Shown: positions 13,546 through 41,114 of the stretch, one piece after another
How the letters are laid out: every line of letters starts with the position of its first letter
Numbering within the stretch: the stretch's first letter is position 1
DNA from: an uncultured Gammaproteobacteria bacterium
Lineage (GTDB): Bacteria > Patescibacteriota > Patescibacteriia > UBA1558 > GWA2-36-10
Reading direction: 5' to 3'
Length of the DNA: 41,189 nucleotides
Assembly (NCBI GenBank): GCA_964394835.1
Contig: CAYMZA010000003.1
Span: 1-41,189 of the forward strand
Notes under the pieces: model-generated
Seen by the model: the letters and a program-made list of their open reading frames with translations, nothing else
Told to the model about the DNA's origin: nothing
Databases searched by the model: none
Position numbers and translations under genes: made by a program

Positions 13546-13953
13546 TTAAGCCTCTAGAAGATTGTATCTTTTACGTTTTGGACGATGACTAAAAATAGTC
13601 ACACTATTACAAGTAATTCTTAAACTATGATAAGTAGAATCAAATAATACAGTATTTATTGGTTCTAAAATACACCGTCCATTGATATAGTAATTATAAT
13701 CTCCTAAGCCATGTTCTTGTAAATCAATTAATAATAAACAATTATCACCATTAGGAAAATCCCAATCTATTTGTTCATGATAAACAGGATTATATCTTTG
13801 CAAGAAAGATAATAATGTATCCTCTCTATTGTTAACTAATAATGATTTTTCAAGATTTTCTTCTAAATCAGTTATACTTTTACAACTAGGTACAAGAAAA
13901 CCAAGAAAAGAAATAGAACAGAACTTAATAAACATTCTTCTATCTAGACTCAT
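13546..13953 (-). CDS. Hypothetical lipoprotein with twin-arginine-like signal
   Basis: MSLDRRMFIKF... then a lipobox-like LVPSC; SD AAGGAG 6 nt upstream. Confidence 0.65.
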   Translation of the reverse strand: MSLDRRMFIKFCSISFLGFLVPSCKSITDLEENLEKSLLVNNREDTLLSFLQRYNPVYHEQIDWDFPNGDNCLLLIDLQEHGLGDYNYYINGRCILEPINTVLFDSTYHSLRITCNSVTIFSHRPKRKRYNLLEA

Positions 13954-14046: not shown

Positions 14047-14140
14047 TTATTCTTCCTCTCCTTAGGAAAAAGAATATAATTCAGGTGTCGGACTTTACCG
14101 TAGCTAGGACTGTGAAGGATTTTCACCTTACTTCCCTGAA
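14047..14140 (-). promoter_or_regulatory. Cobalamin riboswitch (compact, class II-like)
   Basis: UUCAGG-GAA-GUAAGG-UGAAAAU-CCUUC-ACAG-UCCUAG-CU-ACGGUAAAGUCCG-ACA-CCUGAA contains the GGGAA, T-loop and B12-box features. The downstream hairpin loop CUAAGGA is complementary to loop UCCUAG (kissing loop). Confidence 0.85.
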
Positions 14141-14162
14141 CAATTTTAAAGAATGAATCAAT

Positions 14163-20054: not shown

Positions 20055-23000
20055 TTAAGGAAGTGTACAATCCATATACCCATCTCTATCTCCATCACAA
20101 AATGCAGCATCTAAAACTTCTTCTATATTATCTGCCCATAGCCCTGCAATAACACTTGTGTTATCCTGAACTTCTGCTTGAGTATTCTCTATATATAGAC
20201 CACCAGTATCTATAGCAATATTTCTAGCAGCATTAGCACCAAGTGTTTTAGATGGACTTAACCAAATAGGATTAATATGTACTGGCGGATTAGCAGCATT
20301 ACACGCTTCTACTGCTTCTACTAAACCCTCAACGTGAGCACCAGCTACACCATCTGCAGCATCGTACGTGTTTGTACCTATAATATAATCATCATAATCA
20401 TTTATCGCATCACCACACCACATACCCTCATCAGTAATAGGTATTAAAACTCTTTGATAACCTGCCAACCAATTATAGTCTTCAGCTAATACTTTCATAG
20501 CATAAGCAGTATGCTCTGTTCTGTCTATGCTTTCACCATAACAATACCCAGGATCTGATTCATCTGCCCATTCTAGATTAATATTAATATTATTAGTAGT
20601 ATTATCCCAAAAATTAAAATAATCTACATCTTCTGTTTCGTATAAAGCAGAGCAATTACTAATTAAATTGCTATAAACATTACCAGTAGCCCAAACATCA
20701 TCACCAGAATCTAATGGCATAATATGTAATTTATAAGTAATATCTGAATCAATGCTTAATCTATTATTAACAGTTATTAAAGCATTACATATTGCAAGAG
20801 CAGCAGCATTCATACTACCAGACATATCAAAAGGAATAATAATTTCTACCTTTTTTTCTAATTTAAGAGTTGTTGGAACTCCAGTATCACAGGCCTCATA
20901 ACCATTAAAAGTTTCAAGAGTACCATCTTGTATAATACCATCACCACAATACCCTCCTGTATTTATACACATATCACACTGATATTGGTTATGCTCATTT
21001 GAATACTTAGGAGGAGAAGGAATAGACCAACCTAATATTTCACATGTTTCTCCATATGTAGTTTCTGCTGGCCCACCATCACCACAATACCCCCCAGCTG
21101 AAATCTCACATTTTTGTGTTCCCGTGGTTTGACATTCGTATCTACGACTTGGACTAGATTCTTGTGGTGTTGGACGACTTGGATAGTTTACTCCATCGCA
21201 TAATTCCTCATCAGCGCCATACGAATCAATATCACCATTACCACAATATCCTCCTGTGGTAATTTCACAATTTTGAGCACACTGATATTGATTATTTATA
21301 TCGGAGATACCTGGATTTGGAAAACTATAATCAGAGCCATCACATCTCTCGTCTGCATCTATTGTTGGATTACCATAAGGATCATTTGTGCCATCTTGAG
21401 ATATATTATCACCGCAATATCCACCAGCTGTTTTACTACACCTAAGTTCTATAGGATCAGAGCCAGTATTAGTACGACATTGATATTGACTCTCTGGATT
21501 ACCAATTGTTTCATGAGGTGCTGGCATAGGCCATCCTATATTATAATCACTTGTAGCTAAATCATAATCACATAATTCTTGAAAAGAATATTGATAAGTA
21601 GCATCACCACAATATTCATTAGTAAATGTACAATCATTATTACAACCATATGCATTATCTATAGAAGAATCATCCGGTAAAGGAATTGAGTAGTTATAGT
21701 AATCACATTCCTCTAACCCTGGGGGAGAATAACTTGCATCTTGTGTTATACCATCACCACATACTCCTTCGTATGCTGTACCAATAGTACATTCTCTAAA
21801 ACAAGAATTAGTGCAACTAATATCGCCATTTTCTGTACAATCCCAACCTTCTAAACCATTAGGAGTGCCAGTAGGATCACATTCTTCTGCTAATGGTGTA
21901 TATACATTATCTAAACAAGCAGAAGCTGGTAACCCATTAGTACAAATTGGTTGACAACTATCATCGATATTATTTGGGTCACTATCACAAGAATAAGGAC
22001 CAAGATTTTCACAATGATATGTTACTCCGTTATAAAATTCAATAGGACCAGGAAGGATCTCACATAATTCATAACCACCTTGAAATGTTTCATCGCCACA
22101 ATATCCTCCACACTCTACAGCTGTTGGTTCATACCAAGTACACTCTATTAAATTACCGCCAGCGTCAACAGTGCCAGCTGGATTGCAACCAACCCTTTGC
22201 TGATTCCACCATCCCAAATCCCCAGTACAACCATTGTCTAAATAATCTCCTGGCTCACACTCTTCATCATCAGTACCATCATCATCATAATCATCTATAG
22301 TTCCATTACCACAATATTCAGCAACTGTACCACCACCAGAAAAAATAGGTGTACCATTACAATATGCTACTAAATTTGATGATAAGTATGGTATATTATT
22401 AACACCACCCTCTGGACTTAAATTATTAGAAAAAGTAATACCGCCTTCATTATATTCAAAATCAGAAACTAAAGTGTAATCAAAAGGATTATTATTAGTA
22501 TTATCATATAAATATATCAATGAATTAACAGGACAAATAAATTCACCAGATACTTCATTCCAACATGTATTTGGATCTGCTCCTTCTGTATAACCATTAA
22601 ATAAATTAATTGGATCAACGGGCAAACTAATCCCTAGTACTGTACCTAATTCATCTGACCAAGAAGGCCATTTACTACTAGAAAGACCCCTAATAAAACT
22701 ACCAGCAGGTAACAAAGGATAATTATCTTTACAAGTTTCTCCAGCCAAACAGTCACTATTAGTAATACAAGGATTAGTAGGATGCATACTACAATATCTA
22801 TGATCTAATCCATATGAGTACAAAGAATTTTGTATTGAAATTAAATCACCTAAACGTTCTAGATCTCTACGTAACTCTAAACTATTTGATTCACAAACAT
22901 CTTCACCGGGACAATCAAAATCACTTGCACAATAAAGATGATCATTATCAACACATATATTATCATCCCTAGCTATATTAGTATTGAATTCTAATTCTTC

Positions 23001-26000
23001 TAATAATTGATTAAAAATATTAATAGTTGCAGCATTTGCACCTATATTATATGCAAGTAAATAAATATTTGTATGTAAATTAGAATTAGGATCACTTGCA
23101 TCTTCAATATTAACAGATGAAATATATACTGTATTACCAGCTCTATATGCTGGATAACCATCTATTAATATTTCTGCACCTGCCTCACCAGGATTAGGAG
23201 CATAAGTATTATACCAATCATATGCTGATAAATGTTCTTCGTTACTATATACTCTAATGCCTACAAAATTATCTGTATCTAAATTAACAATTGGGAACAT
23301 AAAATCTTGTAAAAGATTAGGATCTGTTAATGGATCTATTGGAATCTGAAGAGGTTCATCTGGTAAAGCAGGTAATGTTTCTCCACTAATCGTAAAATCA
23401 TCTACATAAAAGTTTGAACCATCTGCATCTGTAGGTGTATAACCCAAAGAATAACCTAATTCAAAATGTAAATTACCAGAACTATCTAATAATCTAGCTA
23501 CTTCATCATCAAAAATAAAATATCCCTCATATAATGTCCAATCATTATAAGTACCAGCCGGTATATCATAACCTAAGATTTGTTCTGTATAACAACGAGT
23601 TTGATATGGTTCATGTAAACAACAATAACCTGATTGATCTGCACACTCCTCATAAGGGCCACCATAAGCAGAACAATAAGTAGAAGCGCTACTAGAATCA
23701 TAAGATACGCATTGACTACCCCAACCTAAAGCATATGATAAACGAGGACGTATATAAGTATCGATGTCACCTTTGTAATAAAAATGTATAACATATTCTT
23801 CACCATATTTCCAATTTAAATTACCAACCTGATACGTTGCTCTAGTCCACATAGTCGTGTTATTGTACGGCCACGTAAAAGAATTACCTTCATTATATAC
23901 ATTACCACCTATGGTGCATTGATTACTTGACCATGTACAATTACTAGCGTGTCTATAACTACTAGGCCAAGAACCAGTACCATCACCCTCACACGCATCT
24001 TGAATACAAGTACCTGGATAAGCCTCATTAGGATCTTGATGCATTAATAAACTATGCGCTCCTGTCATTGCATCTAAACTACTAATTCCAACACTAGCAT
24101 GAGATTGACTATGGCTCTCCCAATTAATAGGCAAAGCTCCCACACTATCATCTTCAAATCCAGCTGTAACAACATTTTCAAAAACTCCTTCAGCATAATC
24201 CTTACAATACCTTGTTTTAAAATGCATATCATAACTAAATTCAAATGTATCAAAATCACTATAAAAATCAAAATAACCATCCGCATCATTAGGCCAAGGA
24301 TTTTCACAGAAAAATAAATCTATATTAGCACTAGCACTAGCAGACCCTAAACTTCCACCATCTATATTTACAGTAAGTACAGTTTGACCATTATCATTTT
24401 GGGATGTACCAGTAACTGTTTGTGCGTTATTATTAGTTAAAACAACTAAATTAGTATCATGTATATCCCATGAAAAAACAGGAGGAGGTATAGGTATAGG
24501 AGTTAAATTTAATAATGTACCAGCAACATCATATACTTCAGCTACAAAATCATTATCAAAATATGATTCATAATATGTATATGGACTAGGATCTATTAAA
24601 GCATAATTTATTTCACATAAATCAACTGCTGTATCAAAATCTTCAATAACACCTCTATTACCATTAATATTACCCACAATACTACCCGTAATATCCAATG
24701 TTAAACCATGTATACTTTCTACATTTTCATCTATAAATATAGTATAATTAGAAGAAATATTTAAATATGAAGAAGGATTAAATATTAACTGTGTTTCTAA
24801 ATCTCCATCTAAATCTCCATCTAAATCTTGAAATATATACGAACCACTAACTTCTTCCATTACACCAGCATTATCATAGTATATCTTAACATAATTACGA
24901 AGACTATTTCTATCCATTGTTTCTGTAAAATCCATAGATATAGCTGCATTAGGACATTCATTACTTCCATTAGGCTGTATATTTTCTACCCTTGGATTAT
25001 CATATGTAATACCAGGATCAATAACAGGTGTTAAAACATTTAATTCTCCAAATCCTGATTGCGTTACACCGCTCTGAACTGCTTCTGCTGTAATATGAAT
25101 ATTATTACCAACAAGTATACCAGTAGCTGTAGTATTTGAAAGATTATGATCAACCACACTAGCTACGGAAGAATCACTTGAATTCCAAGACCATATACAA
25201 GAAGTAGTTAAATCACATTGTATTGCTTGTCCACCAGGATAACAAGTACTAGTATTTGAATATGCTTGTGCTAAATAATCTATAGTATCATCAATATAAA
25301 TACTTTCATATATTGGACTTACAGCCACACTATCAACAATACAATTATCAGAACCAACTCCAAAAGTCCAAGAAAATTCACCACCATCTAGAGTATAACC
25401 ATAAATATTAGTTACATCACTTGATATAACTACATGATAATATTTATCAATAGGGAGAAGATTATGACTTAAAGACACGTGATATGCAGAAGGTATGGTC
25501 ACTTGTGAAGTGAAACTCGTTAGATTATCTGAATCATGAATAGCACAAGAAATATCAGTACAAGAATATATAGCGAAATTATTATTATTTAAAGTAGATG
25601 GGCTTATTTCAGTATTAAACTCAATCCAAACTTCTCCACTATCACAAGAATCTTCACAATCAGGACCATATCCTAATATTTCTAATCTTGGTGCCATTAT
25701 AATAGATTGCGAACTATCTGTAACACTATAATTTGTATTTTCAACCGTAATACCAACATAATTATCAGGAGTTAAATTCTCAGTAGAATTAGGACCAGCA
25801 GTTAAGGTTGTGTAACCTATATTAACACTGGAATTAGTAGCTGGAGCAATTGAGGCATAGGTATTGTTAGTCCCTAACCACCAACTATAATCATAGCTAC
25901 CACCACACATATTACAATTACTAGCATATGGTGAAGCATTAAAATCTCTGGTTTCATTAATATAGAGATTAGCATCATAACCCTGTGGGCTAACAATAAC

Positions 26001-28835
26001 ACTATCAACAACGCACATTATATCAGATGTTTTAAAATGCCATTCAAAATTAGGAGTTTCATCAGCTGGGCTCCACATTTCAGGTCCACTAGCTGCATGA
26101 AATGTACCCATCTCTACCATATACCAAGTGTTTGCACTAAGATCACTTATAGGGTTAAATACTAAACCCTCTGAATCACTACTATGATTAATAATTGTAA
26201 TATCACCGGAAACAGAAGAATCACTACATTCATTACTATTAAAAGGATCGCTAGCTCCAGTATTACATGTAAAAACTTGAAAATTATTAGCATCAAATAA
26301 ATCAGAATCATCTACATCACGAGTAAATAAAGCAACTAAATTTACATCCAATGAAGCATCTTCTGATTTATAACTATCTAAACCATCTGGCCAAGGAGAG
26401 GGTGTCTGTATATCATTGGAACAAGTATAATTAAATTTTAAACCAAATGGTATTTCAGGATCTACTGGTCCTACTCCAGTAGTAATATCCCAAGAATATT
26501 GACAAGAATTAGAGCCAAGAGAACAATCATTAGAACAATAATCCCCAGTATTACCAGGGCAACAATATAATCCTAAACCAGAGGAGTTACAATATGCATC
26601 ATTTGGACAAGAACCAACATTAAACATCATATTATTACTATCAACACTATCATTACGTATAATTTCAGCTTCTCCACTCATAGCATCAGTAGGAACTTTA
26701 GAATTTAAAACTTGATTATCATTCCAAATAACGCTAGATAAATCTGCACTTTCATTTTGACGAAACAGAATATCACTACTACCTAATGTATAACTACCAA
26801 AATATTCTCCATAAAAATTAACCTCCATGCCTTCAGGGCCATTATTTGGTTGCATTGAACAAATACCAGGACTAGGAATACCAGAGGTAATATTAAAAGA
26901 ATCATCATATGTATCGCTCTCTTCTCCATCATTACCTCTTATAATATATATATCATAATTAGTGCTAATACTAACTGCAGACGGAACCTTTGCTACAATA
27001 CTACTTTCTTGCCAAAAATTATTACCACATACTGCAGGAAAATCAAAACTAGCACTATATTCATTAGTACCATCTGTAAATATAACATCACTAACTGATG
27101 GAACATAATATCCAAAATTAAATCCCATTATAGTCACATATTCATCTATTGGTCCAGATAAAGGAGATATATTAGATATAATTGGTAATCCCCCTGCTAA
27201 ATCTGTAGCTAAAAAAAGATAAGGATTACTAATATCATTGGTAGTAGTATCGTCTCCGTCTGTATCTACAGTTAAACTAATAAGCCCTTGAATTAATGGG
27301 ACATTAGAACTTATATTAAAAGAATTAGTATAAGTCATATTAGCATCAGCATCTCCAAAATCTACAGTACTAGCTGCTCCAAAATTAATACCATGAATAT
27401 CTATCAAATCATCATAAATACCCTGATCAGGATCAGCTAAACAAATACCAGCGCGATTTATACTGTTTGCATCAAACCACTCTGTATTACTAGTATCTCC
27501 ACCATCTGTCACTACATCAACCTCTCCATCAATAACACCTGCTGGTACACCTATAATAATATGATCATCAAACCAATAATCATTAGTACAATCTGCATTT
27601 AAAGTATCAGGACTAAGACCATTAAGAAGAGCAGAGGGACCAGTAAAACGTACATAACCAGGATCATCACCAAAGCCAGAGCCAAAAACAGTTATTAGAT
27701 TATTAGCAGCTCCATTATCAGGAGATAAAGAAGTAATATGTGGACCGGATCCAGTACTCTCAATACAAGCATCAGGCATACTACAAACATCATCTGAGCA
27801 ACAACCTGAAACACAATCACTATCAGTACTACAATCTACTAAGAAATACATTTCATCTGAACTACCACTTGCATTTGTAACAATAATGTCACTAGATATA
27901 GCTTGACTATGAATAGTGGTGTCTATAATATCTCCATCAGGATCTTCTGTCCAACTATCAATAGTTAAAAATTGCTGAAACTCCGCACTTCCATTATGCG
28001 CTGTCATAGCAACGCTACTAGAACCAACTACAAAACCCTCAAAATTAATTCCACATATTTCTACACTCTGATCTACTGCTCCTCGTTCAGGAGTAATAGA
28101 TGCTATATTTAAACCAGGTGCTCCATCATGCACAACAAAAGATCCAGTATCTACATTAGACGGAGTATTATTATCAGTAACTTCTACAACCGAAGATCCA
28201 ATACCTACAGTTGGAACTTTAACTATAATCTTTCTATCATCCCAAAGTGGGTCAGAACCACCACATGAAACCACTTCTGCTACAACACCATCAAAAGTAA
28301 CAGTACCCATATCACTACCAAAGTTACAACCTCTGATATTAGCATAACTACCAACAGTACCACCACTCATAGGTCTAATTCTACAAATCTCTAATTCAGT
28401 TTGGCCACTTTCACAACAAAATGTATGTGGATCAGGATATACTATTGTAGATCCTCCACCACCAGTAGCCCCAGTAGCATCTGATAATTTATTCAAAAGA
28501 AAACGAGAAATAACATATGCTGATGATATTATAGATAGACCAATAACTGCATTTATTATAAGCATTTTAGCTTTTTTAACCTGTTCTTCATTACCCTTAG
28601 AAGTCATCCAAAGAAAACCACCGTATATAATTAAAACTACTGCTATTATACCTAATAATCCTAAAAATATATTAATAATACTAGCTGCAATCTCAGTAAC
28701 ACTTTTAGTACCTAAAGCTATACCTTCATTACCTAAAACATTACTACCAAAAACGTCTTCTTGGGCCAAAGCCTTAGGTACAAGCACTAACCAAGAAAAA
28801 AAACTAATAGCTAAGGTGTATAAAACTTTTTTCAT
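20055..28835 (-). CDS. Giant (2926 aa) pilin-anchored multidomain adhesin
   Basis: Signal peptide; TrbC/VirB2-like pilin segment (IIYGGFLWMTSKGNEEQVKKAK..NAVIGL); about 6 IPT/TIG repeats; Big_5/Big_2-like Ig domains; CBM-like domain; about 9 CG(D/N)..ExC repeats; C-terminal vWA (FDMSGSM..ITDE). Confidence 0.85.
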   Translation of the reverse strand: MKKVLYTLAISFFSWLVLVPKALAQEDVFGSNVLGNEGIALGTKSVTEIAASIINIFLGLLGIIAVVLIIYGGFLWMTSKGNEEQVKKAKMLIINAVIGLSIISSAYVISRFLLNKLSDATGATGGGGSTIVYPDPHTFCCESGQTELEICRIRPMSGGTVGSYANIRGCNFGSDMGTVTFDGVVAEVVSCGGSDPLWDDRKIIVKVPTVGIGSSVVEVTDNNTPSNVDTGSFVVHDGAPGLNIASITPERGAVDQSVEICGINFEGFVVGSSSVAMTAHNGSAEFQQFLTIDSWTEDPDGDIIDTTIHSQAISSDIIVTNASGSSDEMYFLVDCSTDSDCVSGCCSDDVCSMPDACIESTGSGPHITSLSPDNGAANNLITVFGSGFGDDPGYVRFTGPSALLNGLSPDTLNADCTNDYWFDDHIIIGVPAGVIDGEVDVVTDGGDTSNTEWFDANSINRAGICLADPDQGIYDDLIDIHGINFGAASTVDFGDADANMTYTNSFNISSNVPLIQGLISLTVDTDGDDTTTNDISNPYLFLATDLAGGLPIISNISPLSGPIDEYVTIMGFNFGYYVPSVSDVIFTDGTNEYSASFDFPAVCGNNFWQESSIVAKVPSAVSISTNYDIYIIRGNDGEESDTYDDSFNITSGIPSPGICSMQPNNGPEGMEVNFYGEYFGSYTLGSSDILFRQNESADLSSVIWNDNQVLNSKVPTDAMSGEAEIIRNDSVDSNNMMFNVGSCPNDAYCNSSGLGLYCCPGNTGDYCSNDCSLGSNSCQYSWDITTGVGPVDPEIPFGLKFNYTCSNDIQTPSPWPDGLDSYKSEDASLDVNLVALFTRDVDDSDLFDANNFQVFTCNTGASDPFNSNECSDSSVSGDITIINHSSDSEGLVFNPISDLSANTWYMVEMGTFHAASGPEMWSPADETPNFEWHFKTSDIMCVVDSVIVSPQGYDANLYINETRDFNASPYASNCNMCGGSYDYSWWLGTNNTYASIAPATNSSVNIGYTTLTAGPNSTENLTPDNYVGITVENTNYSVTDSSQSIIMAPRLEILGYGPDCEDSCDSGEVWIEFNTEISPSTLNNNNFAIYSCTDISCAIHDSDNLTSFTSQVTIPSAYHVSLSHNLLPIDKYYHVVISSDVTNIYGYTLDGGEFSWTFGVGSDNCIVDSVAVSPIYESIYIDDTIDYLAQAYSNTSTCYPGGQAIQCDLTTSCIWSWNSSDSSVASVVDHNLSNTTATGILVGNNIHITAEAVQSGVTQSGFGELNVLTPVIDPGITYDNPRVENIQPNGSNECPNAAISMDFTETMDRNSLRNYVKIYYDNAGVMEEVSGSYIFQDLDGDLDGDLETQLIFNPSSYLNISSNYTIFIDENVESIHGLTLDITGSIVGNINGNRGVIEDFDTAVDLCEINYALIDPSPYTYYESYFDNDFVAEVYDVAGTLLNLTPIPIPPPVFSWDIHDTNLVVLTNNNAQTVTGTSQNDNGQTVLTVNIDGGSLGSASASANIDLFFCENPWPNDADGYFDFYSDFDTFEFSYDMHFKTRYCKDYAEGVFENVVTAGFEDDSVGALPINWESHSQSHASVGISSLDAMTGAHSLLMHQDPNEAYPGTCIQDACEGDGTGSWPSSYRHASNCTWSSNQCTIGGNVYNEGNSFTWPYNNTTMWTRATYQVGNLNWKYGEEYVIHFYYKGDIDTYIRPRLSYALGWGSQCVSYDSSSASTYCSAYGGPYEECADQSGYCCLHEPYQTRCYTEQILGYDIPAGTYNDWTLYEGYFIFDDEVARLLDSSGNLHFELGYSLGYTPTDADGSNFYVDDFTISGETLPALPDEPLQIPIDPLTDPNLLQDFMFPIVNLDTDNFVGIRVYSNEEHLSAYDWYNTYAPNPGEAGAEILIDGYPAYRAGNTVYISSVNIEDASDPNSNLHTNIYLLAYNIGANAATINIFNQLLEELEFNTNIARDDNICVDNDHLYCASDFDCPGEDVCESNSLELRRDLERLGDLISIQNSLYSYGLDHRYCSMHPTNPCITNSDCLAGETCKDNYPLLPAGSFIRGLSSSKWPSWSDELGTVLGISLPVDPINLFNGYTEGADPNTCWNEVSGEFICPVNSLIYLYDNTNNNPFDYTLVSDFEYNEGGITFSNNLSPEGGVNNIPYLSSNLVAYCNGTPIFSGGGTVAEYCGNGTIDDYDDDGTDDEECEPGDYLDNGCTGDLGWWNQQRVGCNPAGTVDAGGNLIECTWYEPTAVECGGYCGDETFQGGYELCEILPGPIEFYNGVTYHCENLGPYSCDSDPNNIDDSCQPICTNGLPASACLDNVYTPLAEECDPTGTPNGLEGWDCTENGDISCTNSCFRECTIGTAYEGVCGDGITQDASYSPPGLEECDYYNYSIPLPDDSSIDNAYGCNNDCTFTNEYCGDATYQYSFQELCDYDLATSDYNIGWPMPAPHETIGNPESQYQCRTNTGSDPIELRCSKTAGGYCGDNISQDGTNDPYGNPTIDADERCDGSDYSFPNPGISDINNQYQCAQNCEITTGGYCGNGDIDSYGADEELCDGVNYPSRPTPQESSPSRRYECQTTGTQKCEISAGGYCGDGGPAETTYGETCEILGWSIPSPPKYSNEHNQYQCDMCINTGGYCGDGIIQDGTLETFNGYEACDTGVPTTLKLEKKVEIIIPFDMSGSMNAAALAICNALITVNNRLSIDSDITYKLHIMPLDSGDDVWATGNVYSNLISNCSALYETEDVDYFNFWDNTTNNININLEWADESDPGYCYGESIDRTEHTAYAMKVLAEDYNWLAGYQRVLIPITDEGMWCGDAINDYDDYIIGTNTYDAADGVAGAHVEGLVEAVEACNAANPPVHINPIWLSPSKTLGANAARNIAIDTGGLYIENTQAEVQDNTSVIAGLWADNIEEVLDAAFCDGDRDGYMDCTLP
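24796..24828 (-). repeat. 12-bp tandem repeat (about 2.7 copies) encoding DLDGDLDGDLE
   Basis: TCTAAATCTCCA x2 plus a partial copy. Confidence 0.7.
28501..28680 (-). repeat. Pilin-coding direct repeat, copy in the giant gene
   Basis: 28556-28625 (70 bp) and 28648-28680 (33 bp) are identical to 30122-30191 and 30214-30246. Confidence 0.9.
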
Positions 28836-39402: not shown

Positions 39403-39437
39403 GTGGGTGGCTTAAACATTATATTTAAACCACCCAC
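39403..39437. terminator. GC-rich hairpin downstream of the two orphan genes
   Basis: GTGGGTGG-cTTAAA...TTTAAa-CCACCCAC; weak U-tract. Confidence 0.45.
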
Positions 39438-39441
39438 TATT

Positions 39442-39633
39442 TTACAAAAAGAATGCAGTATCTTCTCCACCGCTATTTTCAAATAACGGTGAAGAATCTA
39501 CATCACAATCTTCCTGATTAAAGTGAGGCGAACATTCTTCTGCTTCCACAAAATTCAATTCATCCTCTGGGTTATAACCATCGATATATTGACGACATTT
39601 ACCCCTCCTAGTGTCTGGCATTCTCTTACTCAT
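39442..39633 (-). CDS. Hypothetical 63-aa protein (basic N-terminus, acidic C-terminus)
   Basis: AAGGAG SD 6 nt upstream; follows the 95-aa gene. Confidence 0.55.
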   Translation of the reverse strand: MSKRMPDTRRGKCRQYIDGYNPEDELNFVEAEECSPHFNQEDCDVDSSPLFENSGGEDTAFFL

Positions 39634-39657
39634 GACTAACTCCTTTCTTTTTTGTTG

Positions 39658-39945
39658 TTAAAATGATGAGTTGATAGCATCAAGATTCCACTTAATACGT
39701 TGCAGTAGAATACGAGTTGCTTTCTTGCGCCATTCAGGTACGTTAACAATGATACAACGCAGACTCTGATCACTAATGTTATTGTGTGACAAAAGTTCTT
39801 CAGCAGCCCTTTCACGCCAATTAGGATTATTACGAATAACTTCTTCTAGCTTAGAACTGTTAGGGTTACTAGTAACAAAATCTAACCAAGCACGCTGTAC
39901 AGCAATAGTTTGAGGAGATTGACACTCCCAAAATTGATTTTTCAT
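39658..39945 (-). CDS. Hypothetical 95-aa protein with about 24-aa helical repeats
   Basis: AAGGAGGTGA SD; internal repeat L..II.N.P.WR..A...LL. Confidence 0.7.
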   Translation of the reverse strand: MKNQFWECQSPQTIAVQRAWLDFVTSNPNSSKLEEVIRNNPNWRERAAEELLSHNNISDQSLRCIIVNVPEWRKKATRILLQRIKWNLDAINSSF

Positions 39946-39973
39946 GATTCACCTCCTTTTGGTGTTAAAGAAC

Positions 39974-40002
39974 AAAAAATGACTATCAGTTATTGATAGT
40001 CA
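39974..40002 (-). terminator. Attenuator terminator, unit B
   Basis: TGACTATCA-ATAAC-TGATAGTCA followed by TTTTTT. Confidence 0.8.
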
Positions 40003-40031
40003 ACATATACATTTTACCTAATTATATAATA

Positions 40032-40121
40032 TTAACTATCAAAAAATACAAAGAACCATACACGAAACATTTTCATGTAATGAGCCTTAGATGTATAATG
40101 TTTTAAGTTAATACTCGTCAT
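40032..40121 (-). CDS. 29-aa putative leader peptide B: MTSINLKHYTSKAHYMKMFRVWFFVFFDS
   Basis: Not in the ORF track. 19/29 identical to peptide A, with the same length and synonymous codon differences. Confidence 0.72.
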   Translation of the reverse strand: MTSINLKHYTSKAHYMKMFRVWFFVFFDS

Positions 40122-40140
40122 ATAATAATTAATGATTAAT

Positions 40141-40169
40141 AAAAAATAGCTATCCTATGTTGATAGCTA
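40141..40169 (-). terminator. Attenuator terminator, unit A
   Basis: TAGCTATC-AACATAG-GATAGCTA followed by TTTTTT. Confidence 0.8.
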
Positions 40170-40200
40170 ATTACTTTCTAAACCTATTTTATATAAAAAA

Positions 40201-40290
40201 TTAGCTTTCAACAGATACAATAAACCAACCACGGAACATTTTCATGTGATTAGCTTTACTTGTATAATGTTTTAAACTAATATTTTCCAT
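40201..40290 (-). CDS. 29-aa putative leader peptide A: MENISLKHYTSKANHMKMFRGWFIVSVES
   Basis: Not in the ORF track; paralog of the ORF 169 bp downstream. Confidence 0.72.
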   Translation of the reverse strand: MENISLKHYTSKANHMKMFRGWFIVSVES

Positions 40291-40309: not shown

Positions 40310-40338
40310 CATATATACTAAAAAAAAATTCTTGTCAA
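40310..40338 (-). promoter_or_regulatory. Possible promoter for the leader-peptide transcript
   Basis: Perfect TTGACA; imperfect -10 (TATATG at N17, TATATA at N15) across a T homopolymer. Confidence 0.4.
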
Positions 40339-40343
40339 GTAAT

Positions 40344-40374
40344 AAAAAATCCGTTATTAAATAACGAATTTTTT
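40344..40374 (-). terminator. Intrinsic terminator after rplA (possibly bidirectional)
   Basis: AATTCGTTAT-TTA-ATAACGGATT flanked by A and T tracts. Confidence 0.7.
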
Positions 40375-40377
40375 AAT

Positions 40378-41061
40378 TTATATTTTTAATTTAATTCCAG
40401 GCCCCATAGAAGATGATAATATAATGCTTTTTATAAAAACACCCTTTATACTCTGTGGTTTTAATTTCTTTAAAGCATCTATAAACACTTCTAAATTTTC
40501 TAATAGTTTTTCTTTAGAAAAAGATACCCTGCCTACCAAAACATGAAGATTACCACCTTTATCATTCTTAAATGACATTTTACCTTTTTTTAATTCTCCA
40601 ATCATTTTAGATAAATCAGTACCAATAGTATCTGTTTTAGGATTAGGCATTAAACCTCTTTGACCTAAAATTCTAGCTATACTAGAAAGGTTCTTCATCA
40701 TATCAGGTGTAGTTACAACAATATCAAAATCAGTTTTACCAGTTTTTTTAATTTCAGCAATCATATCTTCACTACCAACTATATCAGCTCCAGCGTCTTT
40801 AGATTCTTTTACTTTATCTTCTGAAACTATAGCTGCTATTTTTACTTTTTTACCAGTACCATGTGGTAATATAATTGAAGATCTAATAATCTGATCACTT
40901 TTTTTAGGATCTATACCTAAATTAACATGTAATTCTATAGAAGCATCAAACTTAACTTTAGATGTTTCTTGAATTAATTGTATAGCTTCTTCTAAAGAGT
41001 ATTCTTTAGTTTTATCAATTTTCTCTTTAGCTTCTTTTAATCTTTTGCTTATTTTACTCAT
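40378..41061 (-). CDS. rplA: 50S ribosomal protein L1
   Basis: KFDASIE, LPHGTGK, LGQRGLMPNPK and SSMGPGIK. Confidence 0.98.
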   Translation of the reverse strand: MSKISKRLKEAKEKIDKTKEYSLEEAIQLIQETSKVKFDASIELHVNLGIDPKKSDQIIRSSIILPHGTGKKVKIAAIVSEDKVKESKDAGADIVGSEDMIAEIKKTGKTDFDIVVTTPDMMKNLSSIARILGQRGLMPNPKTDTIGTDLSKMIGELKKGKMSFKNDKGGNLHVLVGRVSFSKEKLLENLEVFIDALKKLKPQSIKGVFIKSIILSSSMGPGIKLKI

Positions 41062-41075
41062 ATTTTTAAATTTTA

Positions 41076-41114
41076 GAGGTAATAATGATTAAACCGACAG
41101 ATTCAATCTCCCTC
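41076..41114 (-). promoter_or_regulatory. Putative uL1-binding autoregulatory RNA element
   Basis: GAGG/CCUC stem, asymmetric GA / AUUAUUA internal loop, and 9-bp GAUUGAAUC/GGUUUAAUC stem, 14 nt before the rplA start. Confidence 0.6.

Follow-up and report, generated by a model that had tools for sequence, protein, structure and literature searches.

Tandem leader units downstream of rplA in a Patescibacteria genome: a probable ribosome-mediated transcription attenuator

Regulatory RNA is almost unexplored in the Candidate Phyla Radiation. Here we describe an element in a 41,189-nucleotide (nt) stretch of DNA, hereafter the window (contig CAYMZA010000003.1 of assembly GCA_964394835.1, whole length), from the genome of a small marine bacterium placed in the Patescibacteriota (602 kb in 54 contigs, 84% complete; coded G000). 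The element lies on the minus strand, 3′ of rplA and 5′ of two genes for proteins of 95 and 63 amino acids (aa), and consists of two diverged units in direct repeat (A and B), each made of a 29-codon open reading frame (ORF), a spacer and an intrinsic terminator. We regard it as probable that the two units, an arrangement found only in this genome, act as a ribosome-mediated transcription attenuator and form the 5′ leader of a two-gene mRNA.

Two leader units between rplA and a gene pair

Read along the minus strand, the rplA ORF (40378–41061) is followed by a terminator-like hairpin (40343–40375; 16-nt arms, 94% complementary, then a T run) and by a promoter-like sequence read by eye from the letters (40310–40338), in which TTGACA (40338–40333) and TATATG (40315–40310) are separated by 17 nt. 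This site, which the promoter scan omits because the last base of its second hexamer is a G, ends 19 nt 5′ of the unit A ATG; the relatives described below conserve a similar one. The unit A leader ORF (29 codons and a stop, MENISLKHYTSKANHMKMFRGWFIVSVES; 40201–40290) lies over its whole length within one long predicted hairpin (fold z-score −5.1). Three segments of this unit matter for what follows: segment 0 (codons 4–6; 40274–40282), which pairs with segment 1 and closes the hairpin as a predicted anti-antiterminator; segment 1 (the last codons and the stop; 40199–40212), whose partner can be either segment 0 or segment 2; and segment 2 (AATTAGCTATCAAC; 40159–40172), the 5′ arm of the terminator with its flanks. 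A spacer of 31 nt leads to the intrinsic terminator (40141–40169, −9.4 kcal/mol), with an 8-bp stem and a 7-nt loop (hairpin 40169–40147) before six Ts.

Unit B has no promoter of its own. Its leader ORF (29 codons and a stop, MTSINLKHYTSKAHYMKMFRVWFFVFFDS; 40032–40121, fold z-score −3.3), with segment 1 at 40042–40032, is followed by segment 2 and an intrinsic terminator (39974–40003, −10.8 kcal/mol) with a 9-bp stem and a 5-nt loop (hairpin 40002–39980), again before six Ts. The gene pair then begins with a GGAGG (39956–39952) and the 95-aa gene (39945–39658; 39658–39956 with its Shine-Dalgarno sequence), continues with the gene for the 63-aa acidic protein, which has its own Shine-Dalgarno sequence (39442–39633), and ends at a strong hairpin that closes the module (39403–39437). 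Only 28 nt separate terminator B from the ATG of the 95-aa gene, which therefore depends on read-through.

An earlier note, made from the DNA letters of this region, had described two diverged 169-bp units, each with an ORF, a spacer and a terminator; repeat and terminator scans agree and place the element on the minus strand. The start-to-start spacing of the units is 169 nt (167 for a second block), a 107-nt core is 78% identical between them, and the region holds five terminator-like sites versus 0.6 ± 0.9 in shuffles. The complementarity described there between the end of the ORF with its stop and the terminator 5′ arm was recovered as well, with 13/14 pairs in unit A and 11/11, one of them G-U, in unit B (counted over alignment columns), and it shows as inverted repeats at 40158–40172 / 40199–40213 (15 nt, 93%) and at 39990–40006 / 40029–40045 (17 nt, 82%). 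A DNA search with both units finds the element once in its own genome and, across 40 relatives, gives matches outside its own locus only in the sister species, coded G001. The tandem arrangement is no artefact of this assembly, since a 257-nt contig across the unit junction (40023–40279) is present with 0 differences in runs of two studies, and one of these runs may be the source sample. No RNA run was listed among the public runs in which the locus is present. Rfam models applied at permissive thresholds to the locus, the whole window and four related loci gave nothing above noise.

An order-level search with the 95-aa protein found relatives in five further genomes of the same family (G001, G011, G016, G008 and G456). 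A seventh match, in G026, was set aside as weak (E 0.006) and internal to a 1146-aa ORF. Searching contigs with smaller alignments added four loci on metagenome contigs (L072–L075), one of which (L075) represents a new lineage, and two on genome contigs, which resemble G011 and G016 as judged from percent identity and matched residues rather than from direct comparison; viral contigs gave 0 related loci. The module lies 3′ of rplA in all five genomes and on contigs L072–L075, that is, in five Parcubacteria lineages, and reads as TTGACA, 16 or 17 nt, TAxxxT, an ATG 16–20 nt on, a 25–29-codon ORF, a spacer, a terminator with T6–7, a Shine-Dalgarno sequence, a gene for a protein of ~100 aa and a gene for an acidic protein of 64–71 aa. 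In these relatives it either adjoins rplA or is set apart from it by one or two zinc-ribbon genes in divergent orientation. The latter are small (CxxC…CxxC), occur between rplA and the leader in G011 and G008/L075, and are transcribed away from the leader promoter (L050 2120–2499, plus strand; L052 873–1223, minus strand; L075 upstream of 2200). For the comparisons below we used eight units from five lineages, namely A and B of G000 and those of G001, G011, G016, G008, G456 and L075.

The leader is present in 6/6 genomes with the gene pair and in none of the other 80 genomes of the order. A degenerate 14-mer of segment 2 had 21 matches in the 86 order genomes versus five for a reversed control, and all 17 new places lay in genes and had no terminator. 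A covariance model running from segment 1 through the terminator recovered, in the same 86 genomes, only the known loci and three weak matches (E 0.03–0.09), which were rejected as ordinary gene-end terminators. Because neither query finds the architecture in the other 80 genomes, we conclude that leader and gene pair move together as a single unit. The encoded peptide is 66–72% identical within the genus and is not conserved in sequence beyond it, with only a loose pattern recurring across lineages (a start of the form M-x-N/S-I/F/L, a central aromatic residue with Arg after it, and a hydrophobic stretch closed by D/E-S/G). A profile built from three peptides returned noise only in 400 other genomes of the phylum (best other match E 1.6e-3, inside a 585-aa ORF). 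The conserved 29-aa peptide family that had been proposed thus dissolves outside the genus, where the peptides are very different, and two units in series turn out to be a trait of this genome only and not of the family.

In G456 a gap of 161 nt separates the leader terminator from the ~100-aa gene, and within it (L053 ~1295–1400) GACGCAAG/CTTGCGTC closes another long-range hairpin, with T6 behind it. This hairpin is without an Rfam match and could be a second, unrelated attenuator in series.

Neither of the two downstream proteins has a credible family in Pfam, NCBIfam, PADLOC, PHROGs, Foldseek against the PDB or the ESM Atlas, and a word-index search returned only the query itself and one 74%-identical protein. 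The 95-aa protein has a confident model of five helices (pLDDT 85), for which Foldseek against the PDB gives nothing significant (top match a THA8-like helical-repeat protein, E 1.5, probability 0.60). A profile search with it reached 250 cluster representatives at E ≤ 1e-3, most of which contain 2–8 copies of the same module of ~65 residues: the 95-aa protein is a single copy of an all-helical module that elsewhere in the class is found in 2–8 copies in proteins of 200–850 aa (e.g., P0005, P0007; G788, G518). Six of these multi-copy proteins were checked and none had a Pfam family above cut-off. The second protein is short and very acidic, with a basic N-terminus (M-S/A-K-x-M-P) and a conserved hydrophobic C-terminal tail (FFDG, WFDG, IFPG, IFLG or AFFL; alignment A8), and its centre, A-I-Y-G-Q-E/D-D, is conserved in four relatives and diverged in the window copy. 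We take its acidic stretch and hydrophobic tail to recall the tails of archaeal and eukaryotic ribosomal stalk proteins.

Alternative folds and the leader reading frame

The ORF region folds into one long hairpin in 6/6 units tested (z-scores −5.1, −3.3, −2.6, −7.3, −5.0 and −2.4), and in five of the six a basal helix joins approximately codons 3–6 to the last codons and the stop; in G011, the ORF-only fold begins at codons 7–10 and holds just the 5′ part of the stop-codon segment. A fourth segment near the ORF start pairs with the stop-codon segment, which completes a trp-like 1:2 / 2:3 / 3:4 layout. When the terminator 5′ arm was used as a query together with the 5 nt upstream and 4 nt of the loop, its best 20-nt partner covered the stop codon in 8/8 units (5/5 lineages), and in 8/8 units a terminator hairpin followed by T6–7 stands between the ORF and the first gene. 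This antiterminator pairing (−11.8 to −19.4 kcal/mol) is as strong as, or stronger than, the terminator hairpins (−9.2 to −13.1 kcal/mol). The terminator/antiterminator logic read from this one locus, with the stop codon in the antiterminator strand, is hence conserved in 5/5 lineages carrying the gene pair.

Pairs were counted on a shorter alignment (A7), because in G016 and G456 segment 1 is displaced when MAFFT is given whole units. There, antiterminator pairs form in 82.9% of 123 cells versus 19–59% when the partner is slid, and terminator pairs in 79.8% versus 12–52%, these counts being underestimates for G011 and G456, whose 3′ arms are out of register. The segments also change together between the copies, as had been remarked for three of them, and the present comparison extends this to segments 0–3. 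In unit B and the G001 unit, the core reads AGTT, GACT and AGTC in segments 1, 2 and 3 and TTAACT in segment 0, a change that keeps the 0:1, 1:2 and 2:3 pairings and weakens most cross-pairings with unit A, so that cognate pairings beat cross pairings (A1:A2 −15.1 vs. A1:B2 −6.5; A0:A1 −8.5 vs. B0:A1 −4.2).

A translating ribosome was approximated by folding each unit with a 28-nt footprint held single-stranded. With no ribosome, the probability of the terminator, P(terminator), is 0.87–0.99 in 6/8 units. With the footprint at P-site codons ~5–10 it is at most 0.25 in 8/8 units, and most units are near zero over codons 3–14. With the footprint at the last seven codons and the stop it returns to 0.83–0.99, again in 8/8 units, so that the model reproduces the three states of a trp-type attenuator.

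Frameshifted homologs, which according to the earlier note would refute its reading, were not found among the eight units, all of which maintain the frame: frame 0 has no stop in 8/8 units, and frames 1 and 2 have 2–5 stops each. In dinucleotide shuffles the chance of such an open frame is 0.08–0.29 per lineage, which multiplies to 7e-5 for the five lineages, a figure that makes the case look somewhat stronger than it is, given their relatedness. In G011 the frame is shifted relative to the conserved AGCT core, and the ORF still ends in the same segment (TGA then TAG). The leader ORFs have no Shine-Dalgarno sequence, which is no objection because 32/35 ORFs examined in the window also lack one (the 35 being 34 ORFs of at least 80 aa plus the 63-aa ORF, and counting any GGAG, GAGG, AGGA, AAGG or GGTG up to 22 nt from the start). 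The organism thus appears to start translation mostly without this signal, and the three ORFs that carry it are the two regulated genes and one behind an AdoCbl-II riboswitch.

The peptides of units A and B are identical at 19/29 positions (66%) and, as described earlier, differ synonymously at five codons (11, AGT/TCT; 12; 19; 23; 29). Much of their common pattern, a K/N-rich first half and an F/V-rich second half, is a consequence of the AU-rich hairpin, in whose opposing arms AAA/AAC faces UUU/GUU. Pfam finds nothing in the leader peptides, and stalling motifs of the peptidyl-transferase or macrolide antibiotic kinds, looked for by eye, are not conserved across lineages.

Mechanism, rivals and known attenuators

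Together, the kept frame, the conserved segments and the three states seen in silico are consistent with control by a ribosome on the leader. We infer that the ORF is translated and that the terminators work as such, in which case transcription would start ~10–13 nt 5′ of the ATG of the 25–29-codon ORF. The ORF RNA would fold into the long hairpin, its basal helix formed by segment 0 (codons ~4–6) and segment 1 (last codons and stop), and segment 1 would have as its alternative partner segment 2, the 5′ arm of the downstream intrinsic terminator. With no ribosome, the hairpin would retain segment 1 and the terminator would form. A ribosome slowed in the 5′ arm (P-site codons ~3–14) would open the hairpin and free segment 1 for the antiterminator, allowing the polymerase to read through. 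A ribosome at the stop codon would cover segment 1, and the terminator would form again. From these three states it would follow that the downstream genes are on when elongation on the leader is slow, as might happen when charged tRNA runs short, when an inhibitor acts on translation or when the peptide itself causes an arrest, and two units in series would multiply two termination probabilities.

Such an attenuator would mean that tiny cells, mostly without Shine-Dalgarno sequences, couple transcription to translation tightly enough to regulate genes with it. The 95-aa and acidic proteins would then stand out as a pair wanted only when translation falters, which offers a handle on both, and two diverged, partly orthogonal copies in one leader would represent a natural stacking of switches to tighten the response.

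Because the leader has neither a codon run nor a stalling motif kept across lineages, it may respond to translation speed in general; charged tRNA may run short in an organism that has to import its amino acids, or inhibitors may slow translation. It is tempting to go further and to see in the leader a general translation-speed sensor, in which any slowing of the first ribosome on the hairpin ORF turns on a compact, horizontally exchanged gene pair that acts on the ribosome or on translation factors. The module sits where rplJ-rplL usually follow rplA, and the pair is no replacement for these two genes, since rplJ and rplL lie elsewhere in the genome. We consider this extended version quite doubtful; if true, an ultra-small episymbiotic bacterium would possess a dedicated response to translation stress, and there would be direct evidence of coupled transcription and translation in the Candidate Phyla Radiation.

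Several observations weigh against a ribosome-mediated attenuator. The covariation is weak, with changes on both sides in only four antiterminator and two terminator pairs; column shuffles reach the observed number of antiterminator paired cells in 43/500 cases and the observed covariation score in 98/500 (antiterminator) and 16/500 (terminator). The segments vary little, and their palindromic core, AGCT, lets several registers pair. The known lineages number only five and are related to one another. The footprint folding is an equilibrium approximation only, not co-transcriptional kinetics. In it, unit B and the G001 unit favour the antiterminator without a ribosome (P(terminator) 0.33 and 0.01), such that these two may leak more or may depend on which helix folds first. 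As for the peptide, the leaders contain no run of codons for a single amino acid and no recognisable stalling motif, and the 20 nucleotides at which A and B differ are spread 6/6/8 over first, second and third codon positions, giving five synonymous versus 10 non-synonymous codons. Selection on the peptide, which had been suggested from the synonymous changes, is thus not borne out, and an arrest-peptide family is unsupported because third positions are not favoured. The high nucleotide conservation of the leader points to a constraint at the RNA level, which a non-translated switch would show too. Overall, what endures of the earlier interpretation is the attenuator logic, the stop codon in the antiterminator strand and the kept frame, and what finds no support is the peptide family, the selection on it and the tandem as a family trait.

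The first alternative is a terminator/antiterminator RNA switch with an effector other than the ribosome, its hairpin bound by a small molecule or by a protein (possibly the downstream helical-repeat protein, in feedback) and its ORF incidental. Among the conserved features the long hairpin, with its strong z-scores, is the most conspicuous; nucleotide identity between G008 and L075 is 97.1% for the leader and 86.4% for the regulated gene; the differences between units A and B show no codon-position bias; and the fold that best matches the 95-aa protein, albeit below significance, is the THA8-like one, an RNA-binding helical repeat. However, an incidental ORF would hardly explain a frame 0 open in 8/8 units with both other frames closed, nor an ATG at a fixed distance from the promoter and a stop inside segment 1 in 5/5 lineages. 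The interior of the hairpin varies between lineages to the point that it cannot be aligned, unlike an aptamer, no Rfam family matches, and the hairpin needs opening, for which a translating ribosome is the simplest candidate. We therefore hold such a switch to be unlikely.

The short ORFs might instead be ordinary small-protein genes, or the transcript a small RNA, with terminators of their own and an incidental, unregulated leak into the genes downstream. Each unit would fit as a complete promoter-proximal ORF with a terminator, and the peptide is well kept within the genus, at the 66–72% identity given above. Nevertheless, the peptide varies between lineages while the pairing of stop region and terminator arm is kept, and there is no room for a promoter of the 95-aa gene, the available distance being 28 nt in G000 and G001 and 31–65 nt in G011, G016, G008 and L075. 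The constant association of ORF, terminator and gene pair (6/6 genomes with the pair, 0 of the other 80 in the order) also speaks against an incidental leak, which makes this explanation very unlikely.

The earlier note's own alternative was a tandem type I toxin-antitoxin locus, with a small hydrophobic peptide repressed by antisense RNA from the plus-strand TATAAT sites, and both copies do contain such a site inside the ORF (TTTTCA-18-TATAAT, ending at 40099 and 40268) as well as a hydrophobic C-terminal half of the peptide. This is now weakened to the point of being extremely improbable, because the site is confined to one genus (3/8 units, with a different, weaker site in G011 and none in G016, G008, L075 or G456), promoter-like sites are not enriched in the region (seven found, 11.9 ± 3.6 expected), the hydrophobic stretch, at most ~10 residues, could not reach across a membrane, folding is weaker on the plus strand (z-scores −3.1 and −2.3 vs. 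−4.1 and −3.1), and neither PADLOC nor Pfam recognises a family in the neighbouring genes, as Pfam does not in the peptides.

A ribosome-mediated attenuator, the reading we prefer, has several known counterparts. Leaders of the trp, his, phe, leu and thr type have a short leader ORF and four segments with mutually exclusive 1:2, 2:3 and 3:4 pairings. The present units share with such attenuators of amino-acid operons, pheL among them (PMC3082878), the leader ORF, the four segments, a stop codon positioned for a terminating ribosome to block the antiterminator, and a terminator before the structural genes. They differ in having no codon run, in preceding genes that are not biosynthetic and match no family, in enclosing the whole ORF in one long hairpin and, like most genes of the organism, in lacking a Shine-Dalgarno sequence. 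It is moreover unlikely that the small genome of the window supports amino acid synthesis.

A second group comprises the leader ORFs of Bacillus and Listeria that respond to translation inhibitors, such as those of yxjB (PMC6851288) and vmlR (PMC9226507). They too are reported to be short ORFs without a codon run, where stalling selects the antiterminator over the terminator and where an RNA-polymerase pause may synchronise the two machines. The genes they control reportedly confer resistance (an rRNA methyltransferase, an ABCF protein), unlike the products here, which match no family, and in our leaders no stalling motif is conserved. Family searches found no resistance determinant (rRNA methylase, ABCF protein or efflux pump) downstream.

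The two leader ORFs of Salmonella mgtCBR reportedly sense different signals. Like ours, the mgtCBR leader (PMC3641672) is reported to hold a pair of successive short ORFs, each coupled to alternative stem-loops that govern transcription of the coding region. The mgtCBR ORFs are unrelated to each other, whereas the units in the window are diverged copies (the 78% over 107 nt given above), each with its own intrinsic terminator, and are found as a pair in one genome only. Lastly, control by mycobacterial polycysteine ORFs is said not to rest on a terminator/antiterminator layout. These leaderless short-ORF attenuators, as reported (bioRxiv 10.1101/834739), resemble the units in lying at or near the mRNA 5′ end, in having no Shine-Dalgarno sequence and in being the first cistron that controls an operon, and differ in carrying runs of cysteine codons.

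Since it combines no codon run, no biosynthetic genes and no resistance gene, we file the element as a new family within the ribosome-dependent attenuators, of neither the amino-acid nor the resistance subtype. A full-text search of the literature collection returned nothing that joins leader peptide, attenuation and Patescibacteria, nor anything joining Candidate Phyla Radiation, riboswitch and attenuator.

Exchange of the module and other features of the window

Two units occur only in G000, and the sister species G001 has a single, chimera-like unit. Over its first 45 nt it is closer to unit A (93.3% identity, vs. 71.1% to unit B), and over the remainder to unit B (97.1%, vs. 74.1% to unit A). 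Run X7 holds a contig in which exactly 169 nt are missing relative to the window and which matches the single-unit form. Between G000 and G001 (window 39442–39956 vs. L009 1680–1967), the 95-aa gene is identical at 286/288 positions, versus 91.8% identity for rplA and 89.0% for the M17 peptidase gene. The module also stands out in its G+C content (36–39% vs. 20–31% in the flanks) and in carrying two of the only three Shine-Dalgarno sequences among the 35 ORFs. From this we infer that the two species exchanged the module recently and that, in G001, a crossover took place within the leader ORF; G000 may either have kept an incoming leader beside the resident one, or preserve an ancestral tandem that collapsed in G001.

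The second gene of the pair carries a 65-nt deletion (window 39540–39604, in the 63-aa ORF) in G001 (L009 near 2010–2030) and in one contig from each of four runs. As 65 is no multiple of three, this gene is broken in some strains.

Outside the module, a near-identical element of ~45 nt (…GAGGGAGATTAAATCTGTCGGTTTAATC…ATTACCTC…) stands before both rplK and rplA in G001 (L009 195–250 and 676–730) and before rplA in the window (41062–41110). It has no Rfam match at the gathering score in the window and may be a mimic of the L1 binding site for autoregulation. An AdoCbl-II riboswitch (14076–14153, minus strand; 44.5 bits, E 1.2e-7) lies upstream of a 135-aa ORF (13546–13953, minus strand), the only ORF besides the gene pair with a Shine-Dalgarno sequence among the 35 examined. 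Finally, a single ORF of 2926 aa occupies 20055–28835 of the minus strand.

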